From a bacterium (lineage in GTDB: Bacteria; UBP14; UBA6098; JAFGQG01), in the NCBI GenBank assembly GCA_016930435.1, contig JAFGGQ010000148.1, forward strand, positions 1 through 61,595: DNA of 61,595 nt, given 5' to 3'. This document shows, in pieces, positions 2,063 to 49,400 of the stretch; positions within the stretch are counted from its first letter, which is position 1, and each line of letters begins with the position of its first letter. Position numbers and translations under genes: made by a program. The notes under the pieces were generated by a model, which ran no database searches, had not been told where the DNA came from, and saw only the letters and a program-made list of their open reading frames with translations.

Positions 2063-5000
2063 GTGGGTAAAAAATTTCTATTAATAATGGTTATTGTAGG
2101 GTTTTGCGCAAATATTTGCCTGGCTGAACGCTGCAATATTCTAATCTACACCACGGGGGGGATGTATGCTGGCGACCGTTTTGATTCTCTAAAAGCTGTA
2201 CTCGAAGATATGGGCAATACGGTGCGATTAGAGGATCGCACTTCGATCTCCGATCTATCAAGTCTGTTACCGGGTGATTACTCCCAATGTTGGTTTATCA
2301 ACGGGGATACCAATCGCGCGGTTTCATTAAACACAGAGGAGCGAGATTCAATAATCCTGTTTGCCGAAAGCGGGGGTGGACTGGTTATTTTAGCGGATCA
2401 TGTATCTGGTTTAGCCTCTTATCATGCCGACGCTAATTTTATCTGTCAGGAATGGTTGCTTCAATTTAGCGGAAACCGTAATCACTCCTTTGGAGGAAGT
2501 CATACATGTAATCCTTATATACTGTTTTCAGACCACCCTATTTCTGAGTCGATCACAACATTATTCACCACAATCTCGGAAGCTGAAATACATTTCAGTG
2601 GATTGGATACAGATTGTCATCCTATAGCTATTTATGCTGAAGATACTTTACAATGCAGCTTTGAGATGGATGATGCTAAAATATTTTTGGATGGGTGTTT
2701 TGAAAGGTACCTGGATGAATTTATTCACGAGTGTGGGGGCGATAGTCTGGTCCGAAATATATCATGCTGGCTAGAACCTCATGGTTGTGGTTGTGAAGAA
2801 TTATATGTTTCTTCCATCGATTACCTCTGGTTCTGGGAGGAAACTGATTGCAACGATAGCAACATCGTCCATATCTGCTACCTTCTCAGCGGTGACACCA
2901 GCAATATTACGATCTCCCTGAGTAGTGATGGCGGTTTGACCTGGGAGGTTCCTTTATTCACTCTGCTGGATACCGTGGGTGACCTGGGAAGCGAAGTCGC
3001 TCCCGGGGAGCATTGTTTTCAATGGCTGATGAATGAAGACCTGCCGGATAGTGAAGGGATGAACTGGATGCTGGAGATTGCCACCGGTTATTCCCGGGGA
3101 TCCTGTTCGGATAGTGTACTCTATATCCTGGCTGATTCTTTTTACATAGGATACAGGGAGGGGCAGGATCTGGCGCATACGGATTCCACTATGCTGTTAG
3201 TGGCTAATCCCTATTCATCCATTATCTCAATCTATGAATTTTCGAAATGTACCAGTGCTCTGCTTCGCTCTGCGGAGATCCCGGTTGCCGCGTCATCTCC
3301 ACACCAGGGAATAACCTATGCTTTTGGTTTTATCTGGGTAACCGGTCATGACGGAGTAATCTATAAAGTTGACCATTCCACTTTAATGGTGGAAGGAAGA
3401 TATGCCCTGGACCGCTCAGGGTTGGCAGGTTCGCCTTATTATGAAGGTTTGACCTATGATGATAGTCTGCTTTATGTGATCGAGGATTGGAGCGCGGTCG
3501 GTGGGGCAAGTATGATCTTCGGCTTCGACCCTGATTCTGCTCTATCCTGTTCTGTCGCGTTACTGCCACGGGCTATAGACATTGATGTGCCAGATTATAA
3601 CTATGAAGGTTTTACTATGGCCGGGGGGGTGTTCTGGTGCACCTGTCCCGGTGATCATTCGATCAAGGGCATCGATCTGAGCGGCGCGGTGGTGGAAGAC
3701 TATCCGGCTCCGGGCCCCCTTACTAACGGAGCAGCCTGGGATGGCTGTTATCTTTTCCTCTCCGATCGGAACAGCCCCTGGGTTTTTATCTATGGAGACG
3801 GGGCAAGGTTATGGGAATGGTTGTGCCCATCCTCCTTAAGGGCTAATGCAAATCTGGATTCCCGGCCACCTGAAATCAACCTATTCTGTCCCGAGGGTAC
3901 ATTTGTAGAAGGAGATACGATCATATTCGATTGGTCGGTATCGGATTCCTTCTGGGTAAATGAGCCTTGCAGTCTGCATATCTATGGTTCTGGAAGGGAC
4001 CTTCATTTCGAAGTATCCGATACTTATTTTATCTGGGAGAGTTCGTTTGCCTGCTCCTCCTGCACGGTGGTTGTTGCCGCCCGGGATTCATTCTGCAACT
4101 GGGGATATGATAGTTGTGTAGTTATTATTGAACCTGCAGTTACAAGCCCTCGTATCGATTCTCTCTGGTTCTGGGAAGAAACGGAATGTGATGATACTAA
4201 CCGAGTACACATTTGTTATCATCTTAGTGGGGGTATTAGTGATGTTTATATAGAAGCAAGTACAAATGGGGGAATGACATGGGATGTTCCATTAGAAACC
4301 TTGGAAGATACAACAGGTGATATTGGATCAGATATACTTACTGGTTACCATTGTTTTACCTGGATTTTAAGTGAAGATCTGCCTAATTGGGAGGGGGAAT
4401 TATTACTTTCTATCTGCGCACCAATTGGAGATAGTATTGAATACTTTTATGATTTTGAAGATGGAACCTATAGCGATTTCGAAGAGTATGTTCCAGGAAG
4501 GTTTTTCGTAGTAGATGACGAAGCATATACAGGGTCTCTTTCTGTATATTGTGCTCATACAACTGGTGGTGATCATGATCGCATAATACACTTTGATCAC
4601 CGTTTTTCGAAAGGAAGAATAACCTGTTGGTTTAAGTGCATGGGCCCCAGTGCAGATGGTGATCTCTATATAAATTATGATACAAGTGCTATGTCAGGTT
4701 ACAGATGCAGCTATAGGCCCCGTTACACGGACGACCATGATTTTTTTGTAGCGTCTTTGGTGGATGGCCGACCAGATGAATATCTTCTATGGCATGATCC
4801 CATCCATGTGGACAGATACGAATGGTTCAAAGGGGAAATGGTTAGGGATGATGATTGGATATATATTAATGTTTATGATTCTTTCAATGTGCTAGTTGAT
4901 GAAGATTCGATAAGAGACTGTCGTTATTGTACTTATTGCCCTGGCCAGGCTACCGGTGTAGGGCTTTTTAATGGAGGCTATTTGGACGATGTTCTAATTA

Positions 5001-8000
5001 AATTTATCCCTTTGGATACTATAGGGATTTCTAACTACATTGATTCTTATCCACCAAGGGTATTCGTAAGATGCCCAGTTGAATCGATGAGCCCAGGAGA
5101 TACTGTAGAAATATCCTGGCATGTTGATGATCTCTTCTGGGCCAATGACCCTTGCAGTTTGCATATCTATGGTTCTGGAAGGGACCTTCATTTCGAAGTA
5201 TCCGATACTTATTTTATTTGGGAAAGTTCGTTTGCCTGCTCCTCCTGCACGGTGGTTGTTGCCGCCCGTGATTCCTTCTGCAACTGGGGATATGATAGCT
5301 GTGTAGTTATTATTGAACCTGCAGTTACAAGCCCTCGTATCGATTCTCTTTGGTTCTGGGAAGAAACGGAATGTGATAGGATCAATATTGTGAATATATG
5401 CTACATATTATCAGGAGACAGTGCTGATATTTCGTTTAGAATGAGTGCCGATTCCGGTTTGACCTGGTCAGTACCACTAGATAGTTTAATCAATATGGAG
5501 AATGACTTAGGGTGGGTTGATACCGGTGTACATTGCTTCGAATGGGTTATAAGCAGCGACCTGCCGGATACTGAAACTTGCAGATTTACTGTTGAAATTA
5601 TATCACGCTCCACTATGGTGGGTGAATTGTCCAACAGCAGCTTTGATGATTTTAGCGAGGGAGATACTACTTCAAATGTGAAAATAATGTCACCGGATCC
5701 TGATGGTACGGATGATGGCGCTTTATGGATACCTCCTGGAGAGGACACTATTAAGGTTCTTCAGATAGAGGCTGGTGGACCCTACTACACCCCATGTATC
5801 CCTGAAGCGATATACGCATACATGCTGGAGGGGGATCCACCACTGAGCATTAAGATATACCAGATCAACATATCTGCTTTTAATGCCTCCGCAGTTTCTC
5901 CATCGAGTATGCTTGAAGTGAGTTATGTCGATTACAGTGGTCTTTTAAGTCCTCCCGAATCGATCAGTCTAGCCAGTTTTGATCTGCTAATCTTTGGAAC
6001 CAGGGATTGCTACGGACACTATGATCTTACACTTTCCTCCGCTGATGCAGTAAGGTCGGTTGTGATTGGAGGTTCTGGATTAATGCTGACTCATGATACT
6101 GCTACTCCGCATGCGCCCTGTGGAGACCACAGTAATTTTTGCTCGTTGTATGATATAACCGGAATAACTTGTGATCCGGATATCCCCACAGACGATTGGG
6201 AGGGTTTTACCTCCGTTATACGAGTAGTCGAAACAGACCTTCCAATATTGAATACCCCTTTCGATATACCGGATACCTTCGATGTTATGCTGACCCATTG
6301 GTTGGGTCAAGGTGTTAGCGCTGGTTGGATTTTATACACGGGTCTTGATGCTCCTTATTCTGCTTTTGATAATGGTCTGTACTGGCAAGCTTATCACAAC
6401 CCTTTATACAATTCATTTTCCACCTTCTTCAGCTACGGGCATCGCCCTTTAGTGCCAGAAGAGTGGGAATCGAAAGCCATGATCAATTCCCTATTCTTTT
6501 CCCTGAACGGAGGAATTGGCACTGGGGTTTACAATAGTCCCGTCTATGAATATTGTGAGGGTACTTCAATTGATACCGTTGTATGGTCACTCACTGTTCC
6601 CCCTTGCGGCGGAGAATTGAATATTCAAATTGCCGTCGATACCTCGATCGGTATTACGGAATCCTGGACAGATTGGATACCGGTAATCACTGCAATCCAT
6701 GATCTCCCGGCTTTCGATCAATTACGCTATAGGGTAGGGATAACTGTCCAGCCGGGGTGTGAAAGCCCCATTTTGCACTGGATAAGGTTTAGGTTAACTG
6801 AACCTGATTATAGCAGTTACCATTATACTGGTTGTTTGGATTCCCGATCCCCCGAAGTTGTACTCCGGTGTCCCGAATCCCTATTTTTGGAAAGAGATAT
6901 GATCATATTCGATTGGTCGGTATCGGATTCCTTCTGGGTAAATGACCCTTGCAGTTTGCATATCTTTGGCTGTGGAACTGAACTTCACACCGAGGTTTCC
7001 GATACTTATTTTATTTGGGAAAGTTCGTTTGCCTGCTCCTCCTGTACGGTGGTTGTTGCCGCCCGGGATTCATTCTGCAACTGGGGGTACGATAGTTGTA
7101 TTATAAATATTGAAGCTTCGGTGCCCATAACCGCCTCTATCATTGAGCCTCTCCCAAACACCTGGACCAGTTGCGCAGACCAATTTATCGGTATCGTTTT
7201 GCATCCCGGCAGCATTATGGGTTGGATCTGTGAGGGAGAGACCTTGAACAGCCGTGGTGAATTGCCGGCAGCCCTGATCATTGGGACCTGGGATGGAGAT
7301 ACAACACCCTTTAGAGGGGAGATTTCTCCTTCACCGGGAGACAGCTATGGGGGCAGAACCTGGCTCACCCAGGAGGCCAATTACTGCACTACTTATTGTT
7401 ATTTTACTTGCGGGATCTCACCAGCAGCTGTCTGGCCGGAAGAGTATGCCACTGCCTATATGCATTTCTATATCTGCTCCCCGGATAACCGGGAAGCAGT
7501 CCTTTATATCGATGAGCACGATAATGCTCTTACTATCTGGCATAACGGAGATAGTATTTATTACTATGATCGGCAAAGGCTTTGTACAGAGGTCTCAGTT
7601 CATCTTGAAGCCTGCTGGAACCGGTTTCTTTTCAAGGTTTACAATACTACCATGACTACTTCCGCTGCCTGGAATGTTACCTGGGCTTTCTGGGATTCCA
7701 CCGGAAGTCCCATGACCGACCTGAGATATATTCTGGAAGTACCGGATACTTCCTATAGATCTCACTGCCCCATTGATCCGGGGAGTATCGATCTTACGCT
7801 GAATGGAGAACACTTTTCTGTTGGGGATGGTTATTTAGACCTGGTCGAGGATACGATACTTAGTTGGATACCAATGATTCCAGATTTTTTTGAAGATGGT
7901 GATACTGTGGAGGCGTGCTTGCTTTATGCCGGGGATTCCTGCGGTGGAACCTTAGAGGCCCCATTATGCTGGAATTTCTGGGTAGATCTCAGCGCGCCCC

Positions 8001-10753
8001 TCATAACTGACATCCTACCTTTACCAGGATCCACTATAGAGGATACCTCGCCGTTCATAGGATTTAGAATCGTCGACCCTCTATCCGGGGCCGATACAAG
8101 TTCCATGCAAATGACCGTGGACGGATGTCCGGTGAGTCCTTTTTTTTCCTGGTCGGGAACCGACTGGGAGGCCGGTTGGGAAGCCGCTGGGCCATTTATA
8201 CCCGGCGACAGCGTATTAGTATGTATTACCATAACAGACAGCACAGATTATTGTGAGGATAATCGACTGGATAGTTGTTGGGTTTTTTATATCCAGGATA
8301 CATGGCCCGAGATGAATGCCTCTATCATTGAGCCTCTCCCAAATACCTGGACCAGTTGCGCCGATCAGGCTATTATAATGCATCTTTTTGAAGGCGAAGG
8401 GGGGTGCACCGGTGCTCTAATTACAGAAGATGGAGAAATCCCGGAAGTATTGATCCTGGGTCCATTTGATTCCTCCGAAGAGCCATTGACCGACGCCGGA
8501 CTTTCAGAAATTCGGCCTTCCGAAGGGGATACTACTCTTGGCTATGCATGGTTTGCTGAAAATCCCTATCATTTCAGCTCGGATTACCATTGTGACTTGC
8601 CCTACATAGGGTTCGATTTCTATGATCTGGGTACGGAATGGAGTTCTATTCATGGATCATGTTATATACTTTTTTATCTTTGTACTCCCGAGGAACGAGA
8701 CATCTGTATGGCCTGGTGTATCGATGATGATATCATGATCTGGCTAAACGGCAGTCTTATATATTCTGATCGCGATGGTTCTGCCGAGTATGATTATACT
8801 TGTGATTTTCACCTTACTCCTGGTTATAATACGGTGCTTTTATGGGCTTCAAACTCCGGGGGGTTGAGAGCCTGGGATTTTAAATGGCATTTCGAAGATA
8901 GCCTCGGTGAATCTATTACAGATCTTTACTATTCTATTACATCGCCAGCCAGTGGGGCTTTAAGTTGCCCCATTGATCCTTCTTCCATACTCTTTACTGT
9001 AGAAAGTCTTCTTTATTCGGTGGGTGACGGTTTCTTGTCCTTTAGTGACGATTCAGTATTAACCTGGATTCCTATTTTACCGGATACTTTCCATAATGGT
9101 GATACTATAACAGCTTGCTTAGTAGCAGCAGATGACAGTTGTGGAGGAACCATACCCGATCTACCAATATGCTGGAATTTTTATGTTGATCTTACTCCCC
9201 CAGCTGTATTTAATATTTACCCACCCCCTGATACTACGCTATTTTATTACTTAACTGAATGGACATTTTACCTAGTGGATTCCTTATCAGGGCTTAACAC
9301 AGCTTCATTAACCCTAAATGCAAATGGTATTGAGATAGACCCTTGGATGGAATGGAGGGAAGAAGGATTGTGGATATCATGGAACCCGGACTCTGAAATG
9401 CTTTTTACTGACTCGGTGGCAGTCTGTTTATCCCTATCTGATACTACGGACTATTGTCCAGATAACTGGCTGGATACTTGCTGGAGCATCTATTTAGAAA
9501 ATCCCTGCAGCTTATTTCTAGCCTTACCTGAAACGCTTGCCTATCCAGGTGATACTTTGATTATACCTTTATTTTATAGTACTGTTGGAGCTTTTTCTAC
9601 TGATAACTTTCAATGTATCATCCAATTTAGAGAGGAGATTATCCAAATATTGACTTTGGAATTTGAAGATAGTCGAATGGATGATTGGACAATGGTAGAT
9701 TTCGATACCAGTATCAGTGGATTTTTAACTATTAGCGGGTCAGGAGATTTTATTCCCGAGGATTCCATTTTATGCTGGATAAAGCTATTGATAAGATTCA
9801 CTGCTTCAGAAGGCTGTTATACGGAACTCAGCTTCGGTTCGATAGATCTCTTTGACAGGGATTGTTACTTGACCTGGGAGAATGGTTTCATAAGCTTGCT
9901 TATAAGGGAGAGGGAGTGGTTGTTTGATCTGGTTTTTAGAAGCATTCAATTTAGAAATTCTACCATACTTACCATGGGCATGAACAGTTTTGGGTCGGAA
10001 GCCTATGATTCCGGCTTGGATATTATATATTTACCGGTACCCAGCTCCCCGCCCACCTGGTTCACCCTGGATGATTCCTCCGCTCCGCATATAACGAAAC
10101 TATCCAGGGATATTAGAAATGTTTCAGAAGTCCCTCAAATATGGACTGTCCATACTACTGATTATGAAGGTGATTTATCATGGATACCGGAACTACTGCC
10201 ACCAGGGGATTTTCTTATTAACGAACTTGTTGATATGCGAGCTAATGATGAATATCACTATGAAGCTTTTGAAGTACTGACTATTGAATATGATCGTCCC
10301 GAATTGGGACGATATACCTTTTCTCTGGAAGAAGGCTGGAATATGATATCATTCCCGGTTATCCCAACTTGCGGGGATTGGTATGACTGGTTTCCCGAAA
10401 TGTTAGGTGCAGCTTATTACTACGATCCTGAAAGCAGATGTTACGGTACAGCAACGTTACCCGAAAGGGGCAAAGGATATTGGGTTTATTTAAGAAGTGA
10501 TACTATAATCGAAATTGTAGGCTATCTTATAGACAGCTATAATTTGGAGATTGCTGAAGGTTGGAATATCATTGGCGGGACCACTGATACGGTGATAGCG
10601 GATTATATCGGATACGATCCGCCGGTTATAATAATTACGCCTCTTTATTTCTATTCTATGGGGTATTACTTGGATTCCTACGAATTAATTCCAACAAAAG
10701 CCTATTGGTTGTTTAGTATGGGAAATTCCCTTATTTCTGTAAGTGCTCCATAA
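2063..10753 (+). CDS. Giant (2896 aa) secreted, acidic, Cys/Trp-rich modular surface protein. Order: GATase-like N-domain, 3 type-A scaffold modules with different inserts, 2 type-B modules with PA14-like inserts, cohesin-like domain, twin GWN-repeat C-terminus
   Basis: GTG start after AGGGGA; signal peptide MGKKFLLIMVIVGFCANICLA; WFWEETxC and AARDSFCNWGYDSC each x3; ASIIEPLPNTWTSCADQ and CPIDPxSI each x2; LALPETLAYPGDTLIIPL (cohesin-like); LEEGWNMIS/IAEGWNIIG. Confidence 0.85.
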   Translation: MGKKFLLIMVIVGFCANICLAERCNILIYTTGGMYAGDRFDSLKAVLEDMGNTVRLEDRTSISDLSSLLPGDYSQCWFINGDTNRAVSLNTEERDSIILFAESGGGLVILADHVSGLASYHADANFICQEWLLQFSGNRNHSFGGSHTCNPYILFSDHPISESITTLFTTISEAEIHFSGLDTDCHPIAIYAEDTLQCSFEMDDAKIFLDGCFERYLDEFIHECGGDSLVRNISCWLEPHGCGCEELYVSSIDYLWFWEETDCNDSNIVHICYLLSGDTSNITISLSSDGGLTWEVPLFTLLDTVGDLGSEVAPGEHCFQWLMNEDLPDSEGMNWMLEIATGYSRGSCSDSVLYILADSFYIGYREGQDLAHTDSTMLLVANPYSSIISIYEFSKCTSALLRSAEIPVAASSPHQGITYAFGFIWVTGHDGVIYKVDHSTLMVEGRYALDRSGLAGSPYYEGLTYDDSLLYVIEDWSAVGGASMIFGFDPDSALSCSVALLPRAIDIDVPDYNYEGFTMAGGVFWCTCPGDHSIKGIDLSGAVVEDYPAPGPLTNGAAWDGCYLFLSDRNSPWVFIYGDGARLWEWLCPSSLRANANLDSRPPEINLFCPEGTFVEGDTIIFDWSVSDSFWVNEPCSLHIYGSGRDLHFEVSDTYFIWESSFACSSCTVVVAARDSFCNWGYDSCVVIIEPAVTSPRIDSLWFWEETECDDTNRVHICYHLSGGISDVYIEASTNGGMTWDVPLETLEDTTGDIGSDILTGYHCFTWILSEDLPNWEGELLLSICAPIGDSIEYFYDFEDGTYSDFEEYVPGRFFVVDDEAYTGSLSVYCAHTTGGDHDRIIHFDHRFSKGRITCWFKCMGPSADGDLYINYDTSAMSGYRCSYRPRYTDDHDFFVASLVDGRPDEYLLWHDPIHVDRYEWFKGEMVRDDDWIYINVYDSFNVLVDEDSIRDCRYCTYCPGQATGVGLFNGGYLDDVLIKFIPLDTIGISNYIDSYPPRVFVRCPVESMSPGDTVEISWHVDDLFWANDPCSLHIYGSGRDLHFEVSDTYFIWESSFACSSCTVVVAARDSFCNWGYDSCVVIIEPAVTSPRIDSLWFWEETECDRINIVNICYILSGDSADISFRMSADSGLTWSVPLDSLINMENDLGWVDTGVHCFEWVISSDLPDTETCRFTVEIISRSTMVGELSNSSFDDFSEGDTTSNVKIMSPDPDGTDDGALWIPPGEDTIKVLQIEAGGPYYTPCIPEAIYAYMLEGDPPLSIKIYQINISAFNASAVSPSSMLEVSYVDYSGLLSPPESISLASFDLLIFGTRDCYGHYDLTLSSADAVRSVVIGGSGLMLTHDTATPHAPCGDHSNFCSLYDITGITCDPDIPTDDWEGFTSVIRVVETDLPILNTPFDIPDTFDVMLTHWLGQGVSAGWILYTGLDAPYSAFDNGLYWQAYHNPLYNSFSTFFSYGHRPLVPEEWESKAMINSLFFSLNGGIGTGVYNSPVYEYCEGTSIDTVVWSLTVPPCGGELNIQIAVDTSIGITESWTDWIPVITAIHDLPAFDQLRYRVGITVQPGCESPILHWIRFRLTEPDYSSYHYTGCLDSRSPEVVLRCPESLFLERDMIIFDWSVSDSFWVNDPCSLHIFGCGTELHTEVSDTYFIWESSFACSSCTVVVAARDSFCNWGYDSCIINIEASVPITASIIEPLPNTWTSCADQFIGIVLHPGSIMGWICEGETLNSRGELPAALIIGTWDGDTTPFRGEISPSPGDSYGGRTWLTQEANYCTTYCYFTCGISPAAVWPEEYATAYMHFYICSPDNREAVLYIDEHDNALTIWHNGDSIYYYDRQRLCTEVSVHLEACWNRFLFKVYNTTMTTSAAWNVTWAFWDSTGSPMTDLRYILEVPDTSYRSHCPIDPGSIDLTLNGEHFSVGDGYLDLVEDTILSWIPMIPDFFEDGDTVEACLLYAGDSCGGTLEAPLCWNFWVDLSAPLITDILPLPGSTIEDTSPFIGFRIVDPLSGADTSSMQMTVDGCPVSPFFSWSGTDWEAGWEAAGPFIPGDSVLVCITITDSTDYCEDNRLDSCWVFYIQDTWPEMNASIIEPLPNTWTSCADQAIIMHLFEGEGGCTGALITEDGEIPEVLILGPFDSSEEPLTDAGLSEIRPSEGDTTLGYAWFAENPYHFSSDYHCDLPYIGFDFYDLGTEWSSIHGSCYILFYLCTPEERDICMAWCIDDDIMIWLNGSLIYSDRDGSAEYDYTCDFHLTPGYNTVLLWASNSGGLRAWDFKWHFEDSLGESITDLYYSITSPASGALSCPIDPSSILFTVESLLYSVGDGFLSFSDDSVLTWIPILPDTFHNGDTITACLVAADDSCGGTIPDLPICWNFYVDLTPPAVFNIYPPPDTTLFYYLTEWTFYLVDSLSGLNTASLTLNANGIEIDPWMEWREEGLWISWNPDSEMLFTDSVAVCLSLSDTTDYCPDNWLDTCWSIYLENPCSLFLALPETLAYPGDTLIIPLFYSTVGAFSTDNFQCIIQFREEIIQILTLEFEDSRMDDWTMVDFDTSISGFLTISGSGDFIPEDSILCWIKLLIRFTASEGCYTELSFGSIDLFDRDCYLTWENGFISLLIREREWLFDLVFRSIQFRNSTILTMGMNSFGSEAYDSGLDIIYLPVPSSPPTWFTLDDSSAPHITKLSRDIRNVSEVPQIWTVHTTDYEGDLSWIPELLPPGDFLINELVDMRANDEYHYEAFEVLTIEYDRPELGRYTFSLEEGWNMISFPVIPTCGDWYDWFPEMLGAAYYYDPESRCYGTATLPERGKGYWVYLRSDTIIEIVGYLIDSYNLEIAEGWNIIGGTTDTVIADYIGYDPPVIIITPLYFYSMGYYLDSYELIPTKAYWLFSMGNSLISVSAP
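3965..4192 (+). repeat. Intragenic 228-bp direct repeat, copy 1 (module A1/A2 junction)
   Basis: Aligns by eye with 5150-5377 with 7 mismatches, all synonymous. Confidence 0.93.
5150..5377 (+). repeat. Intragenic 228-bp direct repeat, copy 2 (module A2/A3 junction)
   Basis: About 97% identical to 3965-4192; encodes PCSLHIYGSG...WFWEETECD. Confidence 0.93.
6901..7099 (+). repeat. Intragenic repeat, copy 3 (mosaic of copies 1 and 2)
   Basis: The 5' part gatcatattc...gtaaatga matches 3919 onward (copy 1 flank). Internal SNPs agtttg and atttgggaa match copy 2, while cgggattca matches copy 1. Confidence 0.88.
7133..7176 (+). repeat. 44-bp direct repeat opening module B1 (partner at 8318-8361)
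   Basis: gcctctatcattgagcctctcccaaa(c/t)acctggaccagttgcgc, 43/44 identical. Confidence 0.9.
8318..8361 (+). repeat. 44-bp direct repeat opening module B2 (partner at 7133-7176)
   Basis: 43/44 identical to 7133-7176; encodes ASIIEPLPNTWTSCA. Confidence 0.9.
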
Positions 10754-21201: not shown

Positions 21202-24200
21202 CTAACGGATCAACGTAACGGAACCATTACAGACTATTTCATCCTCGAAGACGATGATCCAGATATAAATACCCCGTGGCGCAGGATTTCCGCGATTATT
21301 AGTCCCGTCCCAAACAAGGAAGTCGCCAGCCTCTCCGTGCACAGTGCGTATCTCCTCCTCATCAAGTGTAAAGATGGTAAGGGTGCCTCCGCCCAGATAC
21401 ATGTGAGGGTAGGTGAAGGTTACCACATCGTTATACCCGTCGCCGTTAGGCGTAAAGACATTGGGAGAATAACTGCATACCGATATAGACGGGATAAAGC
21501 ACCAGCGCAGGATTTCATAGAGGGGATTTGGAAGACCGTAATCAGGGGTCAGGTCGTCCGCGGCCTCCAGGGTAACGCAGGCGCTTTCGCCATCCACAAA
21601 AGACAGCGGGATGTCCTCGGGGATAAAGGATAGGGTATGGGAAGCAAGGTCCCAGTGAATGCCCGGATCTCCGATAATGTAAAGGGTTTCGTTTATGCGC
21701 AATTGAATAGTGCTGATATTGACTTCCCGCAATTCATCCTCCACCGTCAGGATGATATCCTGTTGATAATCTTCGGTTACAGAACCTGCCGGCGGAAGGA
21801 TGGTAGTTCCTACCGGGCCGGTCAGATCAACCCGGAACGTCCAGCCGAACGGGTTTTGAAGCTCATTGCCAACATTGTCGTCGGCTGCAATCAATTGGCA
21901 GTTGACTGTCTGCCCATCGGTGAAAAGGTTGGGTGATTCCGGGTAATACCATAGTATGCTATCCGCATCATAAATGACCGTAGTGCCATTGACATAAAGG
22001 TTCAGTCCGGCTACATTCAAGTGAATTGTAGAGGGATCCACACCATTGGCATCATCCACTATCCTGATAGCGATGGACTGGTTCGCATTGGTGGTCCATG
22101 TGCTGGAATCAGGCTGGATCAGGGTGGCGATAGGTCCGGTGATATTGCGGAAGCTTATGCGCTGAGTGTCACTGCAGCAGAAAGAACGGTCGATACTGAG
22201 AGAATCGTCAAAGTCGTCATCGTACGCGCATACCCGATAGATGAAAGAGGCATTTTCATCCTGTCCGGGGATGAGTGCACGGAAGATATCTCCGCCAAAT
22301 CTTTCCATCTGTTCCTCGTAATTATCTGTCATATCCTCCAGGCTGCCATCGGGAGTCCATTCAAGGTAAACTCCATAGCCTTCCGAGCCGGTAAGATCAT
22401 CATATACTCCGGATGCATCCTCTATGGCGCACTGTATGTAGAATTGCAGGTTTTCCTCTACATGCTGGGGTGAAAAATCGGTGAATTCCGGGCAGAGTGT
22501 ATCATCATCCTGGATGTAAAAACACCATTCATAGGGGATCATGGAATTGGGGTCGCCATAGTCGGGGTTATCGACGGCCCGGATGACCCGAACGCAAACG
22601 GTGTCCCGCTCCAGGAAATGAAGGTTAACCTCTTCCGGGTCGATCACGAAAGTGGTTCCATTCCAGGCAATACCATCCGAGTAAACCGAGAAGTTGACAT
22701 CTATCCCGGATAGTGGTGCGGTAATTTTAATCAGGATAGAAGCCTCTCTGACCCCGGCCAGATCGTCAGTGATATCCATTCGGATAATGGGGGTCTGTCG
22801 GTCCGGGCCGTTCAGTACGGTGTCAGGCAGGGGACTGACATTGGATACTACCGGTCCCCTTAAATCGACGTAGAATTCCCATTCGATGGGTCCGGAGAAG
22901 GGGCTGTGCCCATTGCCGTCCAGTACCTGAGCCAGAATAACGTTCACCTCTTGCCTGTGGGTGAAAGGAACGGATGGATAAAAATAAAGGGTATCATCGG
23001 AAAATGATAGTTCGGGTGAGCCATATACGGTATAGAGGACCTCCTCCACCACAAACTGGATGGTGGTGTCATTGATCCCTTCGTGCGGCTCGTTGAGAAC
23101 CATAAGTATTTCTTGCCGGGAATTAGAGCTATTGGTGCCGTTGAGCGGTTTTATGATCTCACCGGCGGGTCCGCATGGTGCCATGAATGGGGTTTCATCA
23201 TCATCGTCCAGTCCCACGAATTGAACTTCCAGGTTGAGGTGGCGGATGCCGCAATCGGCAACCGAATTAGATGTGGTGTAGGATACATAGTAACCACCGC
23301 GAATAAATTCAGATATCTGCTCTAATATCTCGTCGAATGGGTAGTCCAGATCGTACCAGGTGCCGCCGGTTTCATCGGTCAGGGTCCCGGGCCCGGTATA
23401 AAAGGAAGAATAATAATCACTGCTAACCACGAAGCAAACCGAATTATAAGAGAGCAGTGAGTCCACGCATTCATCCAGTGTAATATCCGAGTATGTAGTG
23501 CCATCACCCCTGTAATGGGGGTTATTATCGGTGATCATAATAATCACGATCCTTGCCCCCGGTCGGAATTCCAGAAAATGGAGGGCATCGGCGATCGCAT
23601 CGAGAGAAGTTTCCGGTCCGTCCCCGCCTCCGGATGCCACTACACCATCCACCATATCCTGAAACAGGTCGATATCAGAGGTCAGTTCATAACCCAGCCC
23701 AAAGCGGGTACCATCAAAATCTGTTTCGTCCTTAAAGGTAACCAGTCCCAACCGATAGTTGATACCGATCATCGCCAATGAATCAGCAAAGGCTCCCACT
23801 CGTGCCTGAACATCGGAGATGATCCAGCCCATGCTTCCGGTGTCATCGATTACGAATACGATATCAGCCATGCCCCCGCCGCCCAGATTGCGAACGATCA
23901 GGGGATATTGACGGGTGCCATCTTCGTGTGCAATAAAGTTCCGGGCGGTCAAGCCCTCTACGGTGCGGTCGTCCTCATCGGTAACGTAAACCAGTGACTG
24001 GATGAGGGGGAAGTTATCCGGTGCCACCTGACGAATGGAGAGGTTGATATCAGATGGGGGCGGTATATATATGACAAAGGACCAGCAGGTGTCGGTAATA
24101 GAATTAGCACCGCAGTATTCTGACCGATCGGAAACTGAATCCAGGCATACAACAACGGTATCACCGATGTAGAATTCCCTGCCGGCCATGGAGGCAGTCC

Positions 24201-25050
24201 ATACCAGGCTGTCTCCGCCCCAACGAAGCGATGGATGCCCCCAACTGTAAGTAATGCCGCCGATAGTTATGGTGATGGAACTTGTATCCAGTCCGGAACC
24301 GGAATCAGCAACATAGAAGGATATTCGAGGATAGGTTTCCCGGGTAGTTCCCCCGGGATCGGGATGTATATTCCAGAGCACAGGTGGAGTCAGGTCCACC
24401 CAGAAAGAGCAGTTGATCAGGGGTAGCCCGATTGAATTTCCCAATGTATCGGCTAACTCGGTAATGGCATAGTGATACTCACCGTCTTCAGCGGGGAGCG
24501 AGGGGCGGAATATCAACAGGGTTTCAGTAGGCGAGGAGAAGAAGGTCAGTTCAGGCGATGATATATCGAAAATGAATCCATTTACCACTACTTCGATAGA
24601 GAGAGTATCGATCTCGTGTTCGTCCCAGAGAGCTACAATTATAGCGGTGTCCGCACAACTGATATAGGAACTGCAGGGTGGAAAGATCATCCTTCCAACC
24701 GGGGGGTAAACATCATCATCTATGATCCAGAATCCATCAAAGAGTGTATCGGCAGCTCCGCTGGGGTTTGTAACGATAACGTCCCTGGTCCCCAGTGGGG
24801 CGGCGATATCGATATCGATATTTGCCCGTAGAAAAGCGGAAGTGATATAAACCAGGCTGGTTACAGTTATCCCGGCGCCAAAATCTGTTGAAAGTGCGGG
24901 TCCGGAAACGAAATTGGTACCGGACAGCAGGATGGTCAAGCTGCTTCCCTGCGCCCCGGTGTCGGGGCTGACACTATACAACGTTGGGGTTTGGGCCCAT
25001 AGCGCAAAGGGAATAATTATTAACAAAGCAAAAAATAACCTATATTTCAC
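21202..25050 (-). CDS. Secreted 1282-aa protein: IPT/TIG-like N-domain, Cys-containing Ig-like repeats, VWA domain, C-terminal gliding-motility-associated (CHU_C / T9SS type-B-like) domain
   Basis: GTG after GGAGG; signal peptide; DIVFVIDDTGSM (MIDAS-like), GGGDGPE, ITD; C-terminus SPNVFTPNGDGYND...WDG...GIYIW...GSVTLIR. Confidence 0.87.
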   Translation of the reverse strand: MKYRLFFALLIIIPFALWAQTPTLYSVSPDTGAQGSSLTILLSGTNFVSGPALSTDFGAGITVTSLVYITSAFLRANIDIDIAAPLGTRDVIVTNPSGAADTLFDGFWIIDDDVYPPVGRMIFPPCSSYISCADTAIIVALWDEHEIDTLSIEVVVNGFIFDISSPELTFFSSPTETLLIFRPSLPAEDGEYHYAITELADTLGNSIGLPLINCSFWVDLTPPVLWNIHPDPGGTTRETYPRISFYVADSGSGLDTSSITITIGGITYSWGHPSLRWGGDSLVWTASMAGREFYIGDTVVVCLDSVSDRSEYCGANSITDTCWSFVIYIPPPSDINLSIRQVAPDNFPLIQSLVYVTDEDDRTVEGLTARNFIAHEDGTRQYPLIVRNLGGGGMADIVFVIDDTGSMGWIISDVQARVGAFADSLAMIGINYRLGLVTFKDETDFDGTRFGLGYELTSDIDLFQDMVDGVVASGGGDGPETSLDAIADALHFLEFRPGARIVIIMITDNNPHYRGDGTTYSDITLDECVDSLLSYNSVCFVVSSDYYSSFYTGPGTLTDETGGTWYDLDYPFDEILEQISEFIRGGYYVSYTTSNSVADCGIRHLNLEVQFVGLDDDDETPFMAPCGPAGEIIKPLNGTNSSNSRQEILMVLNEPHEGINDTTIQFVVEEVLYTVYGSPELSFSDDTLYFYPSVPFTHRQEVNVILAQVLDGNGHSPFSGPIEWEFYVDLRGPVVSNVSPLPDTVLNGPDRQTPIIRMDITDDLAGVREASILIKITAPLSGIDVNFSVYSDGIAWNGTTFVIDPEEVNLHFLERDTVCVRVIRAVDNPDYGDPNSMIPYEWCFYIQDDDTLCPEFTDFSPQHVEENLQFYIQCAIEDASGVYDDLTGSEGYGVYLEWTPDGSLEDMTDNYEEQMERFGGDIFRALIPGQDENASFIYRVCAYDDDFDDSLSIDRSFCCSDTQRISFRNITGPIATLIQPDSSTWTTNANQSIAIRIVDDANGVDPSTIHLNVAGLNLYVNGTTVIYDADSILWYYPESPNLFTDGQTVNCQLIAADDNVGNELQNPFGWTFRVDLTGPVGTTILPPAGSVTEDYQQDIILTVEDELREVNISTIQLRINETLYIIGDPGIHWDLASHTLSFIPEDIPLSFVDGESACVTLEAADDLTPDYGLPNPLYEILRWCFIPSISVCSYSPNVFTPNGDGYNDVVTFTYPHMYLGGGTLTIFTLDEEEIRTVHGEAGDFLVWDGTNNRGNPAPRGIYIWIIVFEDEIVCNGSVTLIR

Positions 25051-43428: not shown

Positions 43429-46400
43429 ATGATAAATCATAAAAGGATCAATTTCCTTATAGTAGTTCTCCTTTCTGTTGCTTTACTGGCTTCGGTCTGG
43501 ATAGCCTGTCAGAAAACCGGGAATATGAGCCCTTATTCCCCCGAATTGCAATCTGTTGTGGACTCCATGTGGGCTTCTCCCCTGGAAATCAATGTAGGGA
43601 GTAGCAGTGATATTTATGCCAGGGTGGTCAATGAGAATACCGGAAACACCCAGAGTAATGTTGAAGTTAACTTTACTTGCGACAGCGGTTATGTAAGCCC
43701 TTCCAATTCGCGAACCAATGCCAACGGGATAGCCCGTGTACGCTATACCTATGCCGGCTATGATTCCGCCCGGTTTAATGCGAACATTGTAGGTGGCGTA
43801 TATGGGAGGGAGGATGCTACTACAATAGTAAAAGTATATCCCGCAGATTATCCCATTACTACCGTGGAGATCGAATCCATCTACGCAGACCCGTCCCAGA
43901 TAAATGCTGGCGAACAGAGCAAGATATACGTTAAGATCGTGGAGGAGGCTACCGGGGATCCCGTGGAAGGGATCACCATCAATTTTTCGGTAAGCAGTTT
44001 CCCGCCTTTCGGAGGTCTATCCCCGGAATATGTGAATACAGATTCCAATGGGTGGTGCCATACAACCTACAGCACCGATATCTCAGATACCGCCCGTTTT
44101 GTTGATATCAAGGCGGAAGTTGCAGGGTTGTTCAAGACGGTTCGAATCCTGGTCTATGAAACCGATTATTTGCCGGTGGAGATAGATACAATTTATGCTG
44201 TTCCTTCGGAGATTGTGGCTGGAGATAATTGCGAGGTATATGTGGTTATCGTGGATGAGGACACCCGGGAACCTTATCCCAATGCCCGGGTTTCCTTTTC
44301 GAGAGACTTCGGTACCCTGTCTCCTTCCAGCGACCTGAGCGATGCAGATGGTATTGCTCACACTACACTGAGCACCCCAAATTCTACCGTGGAAGTGATT
44401 GCCCATGTTACCGCTTTGATCAGCGGGTTGCAGCGTTCGGTATCCATTCTGGTACATGAAACCGGTTTTATCCCAGCCGGATATCTGACTCTGAGAGTGG
44501 TCAATGATTCGATGGAAGCGCTCCCTGCCGGGGATTCTATCCTGGTTGAGGCCAGACTGGAGAACATCCATCATTCGCCTTTACAGGGTGAAACAATCAA
44601 TTTCAGCTCGCCGGATATTACGATTATTACTGTTAATTCCGGGATAACGAACAGTATGGGCAAAGCCTGGGCTTATTTCCCCAATTCGGGAGATACCGTT
44701 ACCGCGCTTGCTATAGCCCGGTATGACACCCTTGCCGATACGGTTACAGTCCATTTTGTGGAACCTGCACCGCCTCCGGTTACCGATATAGTCATTACAA
44801 CAGATTCAACCCGGATGACCGCTAATGGGGTAAGTTATACACAAGTGCGAGCCATTGTATATACCGGGGAAGGATTGGCCAGGGACAGCACCCTGATTAA
44901 TTTTTATGCCTCTGCGGGAAGGCTGTTGCGCATAACCACATCCCGCGCCAAGGGTACTAACGCGCCAGGAATAGAAGCACTACGATCCCCATTTCGCAAG
45001 AATGACCAGCCTTCAAAGCCTCAATATAGCTTTACCGCTACCCTGGACGATTTCATCTCCGAATATACTGTCGGCGGGGTCGCTCAGGTTTACCTCCGCA
45101 GCACCACAACCGTCGATACCTCTATTTTGACCGCATCCAAAGACGGCGTTGTTGACAGTACCAGGGTACTGTTTGTCCCCGGCCCGCCAGATAATATCGA
45201 GTTGTTACCCGCCGAAATGCAGATGACCGCGGACGGCCGCGATACGATGACCGTAAAAGCCTTTCTCACGGATGCCTACGGGAACAGTGTGATCTCTGGC
45301 TATAATGTGGAATTCGAAATACTGGAAGGATTGGGATGTTCATTTATCCCTTCTGCATTTATCAATACCGATATTACCGGAATGGCAAAAGTCCTTCTGC
45401 GCAGCGGGAACATCTCCGGTTACGCTACTTTGAGAGCATCTTACGGGGTGATCTATGACCAGGTGGTGATATTTATTGCCAGTTCGGTACCTTATACAAT
45501 TTACCTTCAATCTTCACCCCCTTTCCTCACTGCAGACGGTGTCAGTTACAGTAATCTGCAGGCTCAGGTTCTCGATGAAAGTTCACTTCCGGTTACCGAT
45601 GGGGTACCGATAATGTTCTACTCTACCGAGGGAGTACTGATGTCTGCTTCCCGGGGACTTGCCCGGCCGCGGTCAGAGCGGGAAAAAATCCCGTTCGATC
45701 CATCATATCAGACATTGGCAGCCCTTGATTCCAGCGCTTTTATAGCTTATACAACAGGTGGGATCGCCACCCTGCGACTGATGAGTTCAACTGAATCCTG
45801 CACAGCCATGGTGGTTTCCTATGCTGAAACATCCAGGGTCATGGTTGCAGCCGATACCATTTATGTTCCTTTCCAGCCAGGTTCACCGGATGATATAACC
45901 CTCTTTGCTTCAAAGGATACGTTGACCGCTAATGAGGATGATACCTGCATCGTAACCGCACTGGTAGTTGATGGATTTGATAATCCAGTGGAAGATGATT
46001 ATCTGGTCAATTTCACGGTAACTTCCGGGAGGATAGTTTCCTCTGCTTATACCGATGAAAACGGCCGTGCCAGGGTTATACTGACCAGTTCACTGGATGT
46101 GGGTTCACAAACCATCGAAGCTACATGCGCGGGAGCAATGGCTCATCGTAACCTTTACTATCAGTATAATCTTCCTTCAGAGATCAATCTTTCGCTTTCG
46201 GCACTTCGTATCGTAGCCAATGGAACCAGCCGGGATACTATAACCGCCGAAATCTTCGATAGTGATAGAAACCATATCAGTAACGGAACCGATGTTCAAT
46301 TCAGATCGATGCTGGGCTCCCTGGAAATGGCTCGCAGCTTTGCGCGGCGAAGTAAATCCAGAACCATCATGGAACCCTTGCTGGATAATATTATTGTGGA

Positions 46401-49400
46401 ATCCGAGGGGGGATATGCACAGGCGGTTTTGATCAGTCCTACAACTGCGGGGATTGATACCGTGATTGTAACCGTCAGTGTGGATACAGTCTCCGTAGTT
46501 GATACTATTCTGGTTGAATATATCCCGGGCGCCCCGGGCCGATTGGTAGTTTCCGCAGACCCGGATACCATATTTGCCGATAACACGGCTACCTCCACGA
46601 TCACCATTCAGGTCTTCGATGAATTCGATAACAGGGTAGGAAGGGATATAGCTGTAAACGTCAATACTACCCTGGGTACCGTTTATCCGGGAGTCGCCTA
46701 TACCACCACCGGCGGAGTGGCGACGGCTACCTTGCGCAGTGGTTACGAGCCCGGAGTGGCTACGGTAGAAGCGAGCATCGGTGGGATCCGTCAACAGACC
46801 CAGGTCTTTTTTATTGAATCCGCGCCGGCTATAATCATCCTGACTACGGATCAGAATTATGTCCAGATCGGGAATACACTGGGCTTAAATGCTTTGGCAC
46901 TGGATGCCACCGGCCACATCGTTTCTGATGGTATGCCTATTAACTTCTCCTCTGTACTGGGCTTTACTGAACCGCCGATTGCATTTACCTTTTCCGGTGT
47001 TGCCACTTCCATTTTGCATCCCCAGACAGATGCAGGCTGGGACACGGTTATTGCATATTCCGGTGATGTTGCGGATACTGCGCTGGTTCAGATCAAAGCG
47101 GGGCTTTGCCAGTATATTGAATTATCGGCGAATCCGGATACCATCGCGGCGGATGGCCGCAGCCGGTCCACTATTACCGCCCGATGCCGTGATGAATACG
47201 GTAATATTGTGGGAGTTGGCCGTATGGTGTCATTCAGCACATCACTGGGAACCATTACCTCTACCGTCTCCACCGATTCACTGGGTATAGCTCAAGCGCT
47301 ATTGACCAGCGCTCCGGATATCGGAACCGCCCAGGTAAGAGCAATCTGTGAAAGCGGCTCCCAGATAGTCGAGGTGGAATTCGTAGCCACTGAAGCCGCA
47401 TTTATCTCGGTATCCGCAAATCCCTCCAAGATCGTAGCGGACGAAGATTCATTCTCAACAATCAGAGCACTGGTGCTAAACGACCGGGCAGAACCCGTAG
47501 CGGATGGCACCATAGTTATTTTCCACAGTTACCATGCTACAACCGGATTGCCCTTCGGTAGTATCGATTCCCTCACTTCGACCACGGGCGGGATAGCAAC
47601 TTCCCTGCTGTACGCTGAAAATATTACCGGTGACGCAGTAGTAGTGGCTTCGGTTATGGGGCTGTCCGACTCGGTAATCGTGGAATTTATACCCGGACCG
47701 GCCGCCCGGATTGACATCGAAGCGGTGCCGGATACAATTCCTGCGGATGGGGTAACCCTGGCCGAAATATCTGCCACACTATTCGACATCCATAATAATC
47801 GCTTGCCAGAAGGCAAGGCTGTTAATTTCCAGACTACATTGGGCGCGGTCAACCGCAGTTTCTCCCGTACCGATAGCACTGGCACCGCCCGTGTGAACCT
47901 GCGCAGCTCAACGGTCAGCGGTGAAGCCATCGTAACCGCATCATCGGGCGGGGTCGAGAATGATGTGGTGGTTTTCTTCAGCCCTCTCGAAGTTGTAACA
48001 CTCTTTCTGACTGCGGACTCCCTCTCGTTGGTCGCCGATGGCAGGGCATCAACCGTTATCAGGGCTTTGGCTTTGGATTCCTGGAGTAATCCCGTGTCCG
48101 ACAATACCCCCATCATCTTCTCTACATCCCTGGGAAATATCGTTCCGGGAGTTGCTTATACCGAAGATGGTTATGCTTTCACCACCCTGATCAGCGGCGA
48201 TAGTCCCGGTACTGCAATGGTTATCGGAAATGCCGGCGGCGGAGTGATGGATACCGTCTATGTCAATTTCGTAACCGGCCCTCCGGCTACTATCGATCTG
48301 ATTGCCGTCCCCAACGTTCTTCCTGCTGATGGAGACACTACTGCCCTGGTCTATGCCGCCGTTATGGATGCCAGCGGCAACCCAGTCCGGCCCGGATTTA
48401 TTATCAATTTCTCTACTACCCTGGGCAGTATCGATACCTTCGCTATAACCGATACACTGGGTGAAGCCGCTGTTACTTTTTACGCCGGGATAACCCCCGG
48501 TAACGCTCTGGTCATAGCCACCGCCGGTGAAGCAGTAGGTCAAACCCAAATTACATTGACAAATACAGAAGCCGGCGAGATCATCATGACCATCGATCCC
48601 GGTGAGATCGTTGCCGATGCACACAGCACCGGGACTATAACTGGCCAGGTATTGAACACCGTTGGTTTTCCCGTTACCGATGGCACGCCGGTAATCTTCT
48701 CGGTGGTTCCGGACAGCCTGGGCAGGGTATCCCCCCGGACTGCTTATACCCTGGGCGGCCAGTTCACAGCTACATTTACCAGCCGAACATATACCGGGTC
48801 TGCTTATATTTTCGCGAACGTGGGTTCTGCACTGGACTCGGTGCTGGTTGACCTCATCCCCGGCCCCGCCGACTATATCATTCTGGAAGCTGATACCTAC
48901 GAGATCCCGGCGGACAGCTCCAGTTTTGCTTCTATTACAGGGACGGTATATGACCGCTATGGCAATACTGTCCGGTCCGGAGTGCCCGTCTCATTTTCCA
49001 CTAATTTAGGGGAGCTTGTCCCTGCTTCCGAAGAGACCGACAGCAGGGGCCAGATATCCTTCATACTGCGCAGCGGTTATGAGCCCGGAGTTGCCAGGGT
49101 GCGCGCTCAATACGGGAGCGCAAGGGGTGAAATCGAAATCGTTATTACCAGTACTACCGCCCGGAGCATTACCCTTACCGCTACTCCTAACCAGATAACC
49201 GCTGATGGCTTTTCCACATCCACACTGGAAGCATTGGTACTGGACAGCCTGGGCAATTTTGTAAGTGATGGAACCCCGGTGCGCTTCTCTTCATTACCGG
49301 GAACAGCTTTCGTCCGGATAGACAGCCTCACTTTCGATACAACTTATATCCTGGATACCCTGGGCGCGGTGATCCCTACTATCAGCTATACCGAACTGGG

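Follow-up and report, generated by a model that had tools for sequence, protein, structure and literature searches.

Split domains, reportedly defined in Graham et al. 2024 (Proteins), offer the nearest described precedent for the gene analyzed here, a single open reading frame (ORF) at positions 2063..10753 (+) of a 61,595-nt contig, hereafter the window, from an uncultured sediment bacterium of the GTDB lineage UBP14; UBA6098; JAFGQG01 (JAFGGQ010000148.1, assembly GCA_016930435.1). The RTX adhesins AhLap, FrhA, and MpIBP contain units that combine a split domain with a ligand-binding domain (PMC12077191, PMC10865825). The first of these sources portrays these adhesins as giant fibrillar proteins of immunoglobulin-like (Ig-like) extender domains, in which a binding domain buds from an Ig-like domain after its first strand or strands and the passengers include jelly rolls resembling carbohydrate-binding modules (CBMs) (PMC12077191). 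The protein encoded in the window is likewise a giant built on Ig-like domains, two of its modules bud in the same manner, and CBM-like jelly rolls are among its passengers. It differs in that Pfam finds no RTX repeats (HemolysinCabind) or type I secretion signal in the whole protein or in its C-terminal 416 amino acids, and the organism has type IX machinery; its Ig-like families have no Pfam match, and its domains are rich in Cys with no Ca-binding linkers evident. In three further modules, the passenger is bracketed by two autonomous domains rather than by one split domain. The layout is one familiar from giant bacterial adhesins, here in a version specific to the lineage, and the protein is set apart by its Ig-like families and its two-domain bracket. 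A preliminary description of this DNA, made from the sequence alone, had suggested a possibly undescribed system; the layout has a precedent in the RTX split domains, but in the literature searched, neither the family nor brackets of this kind in type IX cargo are described.

We consider it probable that this gene encodes a secreted, adhesin-like, multivalent binding protein in the form of a lineage-specific Ig-like rod with five passengers. Such a rod would present a beta-propeller, a probable jelly roll, a DUF5057-like element, and two CBM-like jelly rolls. In the three modules that we call type A, each passenger would be held between two autonomous Ig-like domains, X and Y. In the two type B modules, the passenger would bud from a split Ig-like domain, as in the RTX adhesins, and the pair of whole domains in an A module may do the same job as the split domain in a B module.

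Passengers at the X-to-Y joint

The gene starts with GTG and encodes 2,896 amino acids, 104 of which are Cys (3.6%), bearing out the Cys richness behind the term "disulfide-rich" in the preliminary description. Module boundaries were obtained from masked self-BLAST in 120-amino-acid windows together with profile searches. Each type A module opens with X (about 90 amino acids, with an Asp-box) and closes with Y (about 104 amino acids), both Ig-like. The first module consists of X1, with the Asp-box SSDGGLTW (aa 251-339, 2813..3079), passenger 1 (aa 340-589, 3080..3829), and Y1, with the motif DSxPP..CP ... ARDSFCNWGYDSC (aa 590-693, 3830..4141). The second comprises X2 (aa 697-785, 4151..4417), a passenger of about 200 amino acids (aa 786-984, 4418..5014), and Y2 (aa 985-1088, 5015..5326), and the third X3 (aa 1092-1180, 5336..5602), a passenger of 403 amino acids (aa 1181-1583, 5603..6811), and Y3 (aa 1584-1687, 6812..7123); these and all other features of the gene lie on the + strand. 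The second and third copies of X and Y were recognized by self-comparison and profiles. In the masked self-comparison, the X copies are 53-60% identical over 82-89 amino acids (E 4e-32 and 1e-28) and the Y copies 69-81% identical (E down to 1.5e-62), a similarity far beyond chance. The Asp-box S-x-D-x-G-x-T-W takes the forms SSDGGLTW, STNGGMTW, and SADSGLTW in the X copies. WFWEET recurs at nt 2828, 4166, and 5351, DSxxP...CP at nt 3857, 5042, and 6839, PCSLHI at nt 3965, 5150, and 6947, and AARDSFCNWGYDSC at nt 4076, 5261, and 7058; in the type B modules, ASIIEPLPNTWTSCADQ stands at nt 7133 and 8318 and CPIDP at nt 7766 and 8966. All the motifs listed in the preliminary description, including those of the propeller, FDLLIFG, and GGSGLMLTHD, are present where it had placed them. 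The start-to-start spacing is 1,185 nt (395 codons) both for Y1 and Y2 (3855/5040) and for B1 and B2 (7133/8318), an equality between unrelated repeat types that is probably a coincidence.

Public domain models say little about this protein. No NCBIfam model matched it, and Pfam returned for the whole protein only a sub-threshold DUF5057 match and a weak BNR/Asp-box match. Queried each on its own, X, Y, passenger 2, the type B inserts, the N-terminal domain, and the C-terminal module had no Pfam match.

To delimit the family, a profile of the Y-X pair was searched against 1.84 billion proteins, which gave 449 representative proteins at E <= 1e-3, 176 at E <= 1e-10, and 88 at E <= 1e-30. Iterated profiles of X and Y were then run on the best 150 of the 449, of which 148 had a match to one or both. 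Both domains are present in 91 proteins, 83 of which follow a strict (XY)n order with one module (69 proteins), two (8), three (3), four (2), or five (1). Among 118 X-to-Y joints, 83 carry an insert of 155-416 amino acids, and in the remaining 35 only 2-15 amino acids separate the profile ends. The Y-to-X joints are short, 32 of 34 measuring at most 6 amino acids and the other two 106 and 226. In these alignments, the X-to-Y joint is the one place that accommodates whole foreign domains, and the Y-to-X joint is tight. The same alternation of X, insert, and Y is found in three paralogues of the same genome, on contigs C77 (1,748 amino acids), C18 (1,195 amino acids), and C74 (827 amino acids), and one relative, P0003, consists of five consecutive X-Y pairs with no insert.

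What fills the joint varies widely. All-against-all BLAST sorted the 83 inserts into 15 classes. Passenger 1 belongs to the largest (35 of 83), passenger 3 to a class of 8, and passenger 2 is a singleton; 7 inserts make up an IgGFc_binding class. On the passengers of small relatives, Pfam recognized IgGFc_binding (2.8e-22), a legume-lectin-like domain (1.6e-8), DUF5057 (3e-6), a PQQ/BamB propeller, and an NHL propeller. Read in order, the insert lengths are 249/200/403 in this gene, 403/239 in the C77 paralogue, 403/381/237 in P0004, and 181/235/none/none in P0005. The preliminary description had seen constant flanks around many different inserts, and for type A this picture stands; homologues do not repeat the same inserts in the same order, as both combinations and orders differ.

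The relationship between passengers and their brackets was examined on a FastTree phylogeny of the concatenated X and Y flanks of 116 modules. On this tree, 53 changes of passenger class were counted, compared with 68.4 +/- 2.5 for shuffled labels and a possible minimum of 14. The count is inflated by tree error, since the flanks give a short alignment of deeply diverged sequences. The closest flank neighbor carries another passenger class in 68 of the 116 modules. Even so, passenger class is tied to flank phylogeny only weakly, and the passengers have clearly not been inherited strictly with the brackets.

X and Y as autonomous domains

The preliminary description took the two flanks of a type A module to be halves of one disulfide-rich beta-sandwich carrying the passenger in a loop. 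The regular X-then-Y order in 83 of 91 proteins and the weak support for X:Y contact given below would agree with such a fold, which we nonetheless judge extremely improbable. In an AlphaFold2 (AF2) model of aa 251-790 (21 sequences; mean predicted local distance difference test [pLDDT] 76; predicted TM score [pTM] 0.60, a value that gives no guidance on the X:Y question), X1 with six strands (pLDDT about 85) and Y1 with nine strands (pLDDT about 90) form separate, confident stretches on either side of the passenger. The 148 annotated proteins include 26 with X alone and 31 with Y alone, and at least three copies are present in 12 of the former and 25 of the latter. An X-like domain without a following Y closes some proteins, and three representatives open with a Y that no X precedes. 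Y-type arrays in relatives overlap Pfam matches to Kre9_KNH, Big_7, and Big_13, which are established stand-alone Ig-like families. Because X-only and Y-only proteins occur, 35 of the 118 joints abut with no insert, and the AF2 strands are separate, we conclude that X and Y are two autonomous Ig-like domains, not halves of one sandwich; the type A flanks behave as independent linear domains, an outcome that the preliminary description had named as refuting its model.

The single-type arrays are distant relatives, with per-domain E values of 1e-5 to 1e-12, and although the Y-like arrays coincide with the Kre9/KNH-like, Big_7, and Big_13 families, the Y copies of this protein reach no Pfam model and matched no solved structure by sequence search. 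For X, the same kind of search found a likeness to sialidases that is confined to the motif (profile positions 29-53, E 1.6e-4). Three Cys residues of X are conserved in 91-96% of 128 copies and a fourth is present in 49 of 119; an inter-domain disulfide is conceivable. In four giant proteins with X only (P0017, P0019, P0052, and P0058), runs of three or four X-like repeats with gaps of about 25 amino acids are separated by elements of about 250 or 360 amino acids; inserts between Ig-like repeats therefore occur without Y as well.

Autonomous domains can still touch. When X1 and Y1 were folded as separate chains, the interface score ipSAE was 0.42, compared with 0.01 for the best of three controls; at least 91% of contacts were common to the runs, and the partner's pLDDT was 75 or higher. 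The mark used for such predictions was reached by 58 of 80 solved complexes and by 2 of 110 mismatched pairs, and passes with a score of 0.60 or lower comprised only 7 of the 80 solved complexes plus both passing mismatched pairs. Some X:Y contact would be plausible because a linker of 2-15 amino acids joins X and Y in a third of the joints.

How far such contact may be pressed divides two further explanations. In the first, X and Y together form a two-domain socket, a non-split counterpart of the RTX split domain that arose in an uncultured lineage with type IX secretion; it keeps the rod continuous and places passengers with adjacent termini off-axis, while the Y-X joints act as recombination handles that reassort passengers among genes. 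We hold this full proposal to be possible but doubtful; if true, it would describe a natural plug-in display chassis with at least 15 kinds of passenger. In the second, X and Y are plain spacers that make no contact, and one-module units (signal peptide, X, passenger, Y, sorting domain) were fused or duplicated head to tail like beads on a string. The single module of 69 of the 83 strict (XY)n proteins, the uniformly short Y-to-X joints, which would be expected of fusion points, the autonomy of X and Y, and the weakness of the contact prediction all speak for plain spacers. However, 35 of the 118 joints are empty and P0003 is an insert-free (XY)5, and therefore X-Y is itself a repeating pair; in addition, 15 passenger classes share the same joint with only a weak tie to flank phylogeny (53 changes against 68.4 +/- 2.5), and the contact score stands well above the controls (0.42 against 0.01). 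On balance, we find a string of plain spacers rather unlikely. For the adhesin-like rod that we prefer, the data show the domain boundaries, the autonomy of X and Y, the joint rule, the variety of passengers, the split of the B unit, and the propeller fold; a contact between X and Y that would hold the passenger off-axis has weak computed support.

Type B modules and the folds of the passengers

The two type B modules follow Y3. B1 (aa 1689-2083) and B2 (aa 2084-2480) are 36.7% identical over 409 columns (E 9.5e-80) and are both built on a canonical unit of 210 amino acids made of two Ig-like domains. A profile of this unit, made from five units of one 4,132-amino-acid protein, matches 157 domains in 45 ORFs of this genome and matches B1 and B2 in two pieces. 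In B1, an insert of 188 amino acids (7208..7771) separates the opening pair of strands of the split Ig-like domain (profile positions 3-28, 7130..7207) from the remainder of that domain and the second Ig-like domain (positions 32-210, 7772..8296). In B2, the first strands (positions 4-31, 8318..8401) are followed by an insert of 190 amino acids homologous to that of B1 (8402..8971) and by the rest of the unit (positions 32-210, 8972..9496).

An AF2 model of B1 (22 sequences, pLDDT 74, pTM 0.60) gives the two N-terminal strands a pLDDT of 76-85 and the Ig-like remainder about 90, with the insert ranging from below 50 to about 80. Tandems of two Ig-like domains align to this model from residue 1-2 to about residue 390, as would fit first strands that complete the first sandwich. 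The tandems include titin 3b43 (Z 9.7, 174 residues aligned), 8bxr (Z 8.8, root-mean-square deviation [rmsd] 3.6, 176 aligned), and CbhA 3pdd (181 aligned). Type B is a true split domain, a canonical Ig-like domain interrupted after its first two strands by a jelly roll, and the expectation of one sandwich with the insert in a loop, which fails for type A, holds here by the two-piece profile match, the AF2 model, and the structural alignment.

The B1 insert is a galactose-binding-like jelly roll of moderate to low model confidence. Its best structural match is the N-terminal sugar-binding jelly roll of glycoside hydrolase family 2 (GH2) enzymes (6ncw, Z 9.8, rmsd 3.0, 121 aligned), and matches to such GH2 jelly rolls range from Z 9.8 to 8.3. 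The PA14-like fold suggested earlier for the B inserts was not confirmed, as Pfam gave no match at E <= 5 and no PA14 domain was among the 50 structural matches listed. Split copies of the canonical unit, recognized by a start at about position 32, make up 4 of 144 confident copies in this genome: B1, B2, and one in each of two adjacent genes of contig C39, all four with homologous inserts. Across the 26 genomes of the class, the inserted B module recurs over its full length 32 times, spread over 18 genomes that include this one, and neither the 210-amino-acid unit nor the B module was found in 15 genomes searched outside the class. Since split copies are few, all carry a homologous insert, and the module is conserved across the class, the B insertion appears to be one old, inherited insertion rather than a site for exchangeable cassettes, and the exchangeable cassettes proposed in the preliminary description do not extend to type B. 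The adjacent C39 genes (C39:20236-26367, L037) encode 1,177 and 866 amino acids, each with one B-type split module whose insert is shorter, about 155 amino acids, and the pair recurs in a related genome (G001, contig C158).

Returning to type A, passenger 1 is the best defined of the three inserts. Its AF2 model has 20 strands in five blades (model residues 106-327), and this five-bladed beta-propeller matches glutaminyl cyclase 3mbr (Z 23.6, rmsd 2.8, 209 of 236 residues aligned, 21% identity), YjiK 3qqz (Z 21.6), and the propeller of a phage receptor-binding protein (5efv, Z 18.1), with a TM of 0.74 in a Foldseek search, in agreement with the propeller-like insert seen by eye in the preliminary description. 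Bacterial and plant glutaminyl cyclases and the C-terminal domain of YjiK (3mbr, 3nok, 2iwa, and 3qqz) share its fold (rmsd 2.8-2.9, 209-215 aligned), but passenger 1 is only 12-21% identical to them, in a comparison made by fold. Unlike those proteins, the propeller here is embedded in a giant protein, where it belongs to the commonest passenger class.

The other two passengers can be described less closely. For passenger 2, the nearest ESM Atlas neighbors (0.91-0.93, only 116-143 of 256 features shared) carry 3keto-disac_hyd, Laminin_G_3, and Sialidase-like_CBM, which serve as leads toward a probable concanavalin A (ConA)-like jelly roll; the lectin-like or jelly-roll reading in the preliminary description gains these leads, but Pfam is blank. 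Passenger 3 has a weak DUF5057-like match in its first third (22.6 bits, below the cut-off of 27.9, covering profile positions 253-378 of 378), and the relative P0067 scores 27.3 bits. A sequence search matched it to no solved structure, and the GATase/ThuA-like domain proposed for it is left with the sub-threshold DUF5057 match as its basis. The same element stands between X and Y in 7 other representative proteins and, in three further giant proteins encoded in this genome, at the N-terminus with no X or Y beside it; it is therefore a free-standing element. The passengers are likely to bind ligands.

Module order, secretion, and distribution

At the DNA level, a tract over the Y1-to-X2 joint (3950..4190) matches a partner over the Y2-to-X3 joint (5135..5375) at 230 of 240 bases, with an in-frame offset of 1,185 nt (395 codons), and the flank upstream of the pair matches at only 40-50%. 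The pair bears the signature of gene conversion among repeats and would also allow modules to be lost or gained in frame.

Near-identical tracts can also mislead an assembler, and the type A modules might have been misjoined through them, which would make their order and co-linearity an artifact. One run holds the stretch (0.91 of sampled words), and its contigs cover 3605-3963, 4135-4900, and 5320-6852 at 100% identity and a depth of only 7-12, leaving parts of the gene uncovered; none bridges a Y-to-X joint, and this and the low depth count in favor of a misjoin. However, the three pieces are similar in depth, multi-module relatives are common in other assemblies (two to five modules in 14 of 83 strict (XY)n proteins), and each X-passenger and passenger-Y junction lies inside an independent contig. 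We therefore regard the anatomy of the modules as safe, their order as provisional, and a chimera as improbable. A contig of 6,412 nt from the same run has two matches to the start of X1 (2826-2881), spaced by 1,244 nt, and no other likeness to the window; it presumably belongs to another X-bearing gene in the sample.

The same tracts raise the question of whether the Y-X joints are sites of active recombination that swap, delete, or duplicate passengers on short time scales, as in antigenic or phase variation. The 230 of 240 matching bases beside a poorly matching upstream flank, an offset that keeps a crossover in frame, and the loose tie between passenger class and flank phylogeny would all suit such a process. 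Ordinary gene conversion among tandem repeats yields tracts of this kind as well, and no recombinase, reverse transcriptase, or silent cassette store lies beside the gene, whose neighbors have housekeeping and envelope functions and encode a 5'-nucleotidase, a methyltransferase, a sugar epimerase/dehydratase, MutS2, and a heptosyltransferase. The flanks of paralogues are 41-61% identical as protein, and therefore no recent exchange between genes has taken place. The one run, represented by contigs in which rare variants would be invisible, showed no joint indicative of a deletion or rearrangement across modules. Active shuffling thus strikes us as very unlikely. We would instead attribute the diversity to domain shuffling in the course of evolution together with intragenic gene conversion, with no dedicated mechanism; nothing points to the active diversification system that the preliminary description had envisaged.

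The ends of the protein bear on how it might reach the cell surface. The N-terminal domain (aa 1-250, 2063..2812) includes a stretch that resembles a signal peptide when read by eye, MGKKFLLIMVIVGFCANICLA, and is common to the paralogues C77_18848 and C74_890, with 43% and 42% identity, respectively. By eye only, it also contains a ThuA/GATase1-like motif, GGGLVILADH, and recurs after the modules in P0005; a sequence search matched it to no solved structure. The C-terminal module of 416 amino acids (aa 2481-2896, 9503..10750) is shared in whole or in part with 21 other ORFs of the genome and could be an anchoring or sorting element. Its ESM Atlas leads fall below 0.9 (a cluster with 13% Cohesin members at 0.86 and a FlgD_ig cluster at 0.75). 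In some ORFs the module is followed by a type IX sorting domain and elsewhere, as here, it ends the protein; its last 140 or so amino acids (GWNMISFP ... GKGYWV) are also found alone at C-termini.

Elsewhere in the genome, a SprA_N match above the cut-off (C77:5662-6882, 112 bits) and 143 Por_Secre_tail matches show that the bacterium has the type IX machinery. The SprA-like gene lies about 12 kb upstream of the closest multi-module paralogue (C77:18848-24091) on the same contig. Small relatives of the protein have the architecture of type IX cargo, with a signal peptide, X, a passenger, and Y followed by Por_Secre_tail, CHU_C, or FlgD_ig, and P0018, P0020, and P0067 have a sorting domain. The window protein, in contrast, ends in the 416-amino-acid module, in which no type IX sorting domain is recognized: Pfam found neither Por_Secre_tail nor CHU_C in the protein, and none of the 143 genome matches falls at 10,500-10,753. 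By this criterion, the protein is not recognizable as type IX cargo.

Several points count against the adhesin-like rod. As the protein has no recognized type IX C-terminal domain, its presumed route to the surface and its anchoring are modeled on those of relatives and on an N-terminus that looks by eye like a signal peptide, and display on the cell surface would follow by that analogy. The order of its modules rests on one short-read assembly, and the independent contigs break at the Y-to-X joints. The X-only and Y-only arrays, being distant relatives, speak for the autonomy of the fold type and not of these exact copies. The X:Y score lies in a weak band in which, unless the pairing was already probable, errors outnumber correct predictions, and the packing of X on Y and the off-axis position of the passengers are deduced, not seen directly. 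The propeller may also have an enzymatic role, since its nearest structures are enzymes (glutaminyl cyclases, at 21% identity).

Among the genomes searched, the X/Y family is confined to one uncultured class, in which 24 of 26 genomes have 3-18 matches each, and its members carry no source name other than "hypothetical protein" or "VCBS repeat-containing protein." The 2.85-Mb genome holds the 157 two-Ig units in 45 ORFs, with proteins of up to 4,132 amino acids (contigs C131, C147, C157, C36, C92, and others). With these units and the 143 Por_Secre_tail matches, an unusually large share of its coding capacity is given to secreted giant proteins. Two other genes of the window encode large proteins. 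A second giant ORF at 43429-58920 (+) encodes 5,163 amino acids and is Cys-poor (27 Cys), with a lipoprotein-like start; it has no match to X, Y, or the 210-amino-acid unit and is a different kind of giant protein. The 1,282-amino-acid product of a gene at 21202-25050 (-) has VWA and CHU_C (type IX sorting) domains and contains the two-Ig unit of the B modules three times.

The X/Y family is large, with 449 representative clusters, and has no name. Its joint rule makes it practicable to single out the domains that probably bind ligands among thousands of giant proteins for which annotation is blank, just as the split-domain criterion does for the RTX adhesins. Should X and Y indeed form a socket, the pair would offer a compact scaffold of natural origin on which foreign domains could be displayed; if they do not, the family would be a tidy case of domain shuffling in the surface proteins of sediment bacteria.

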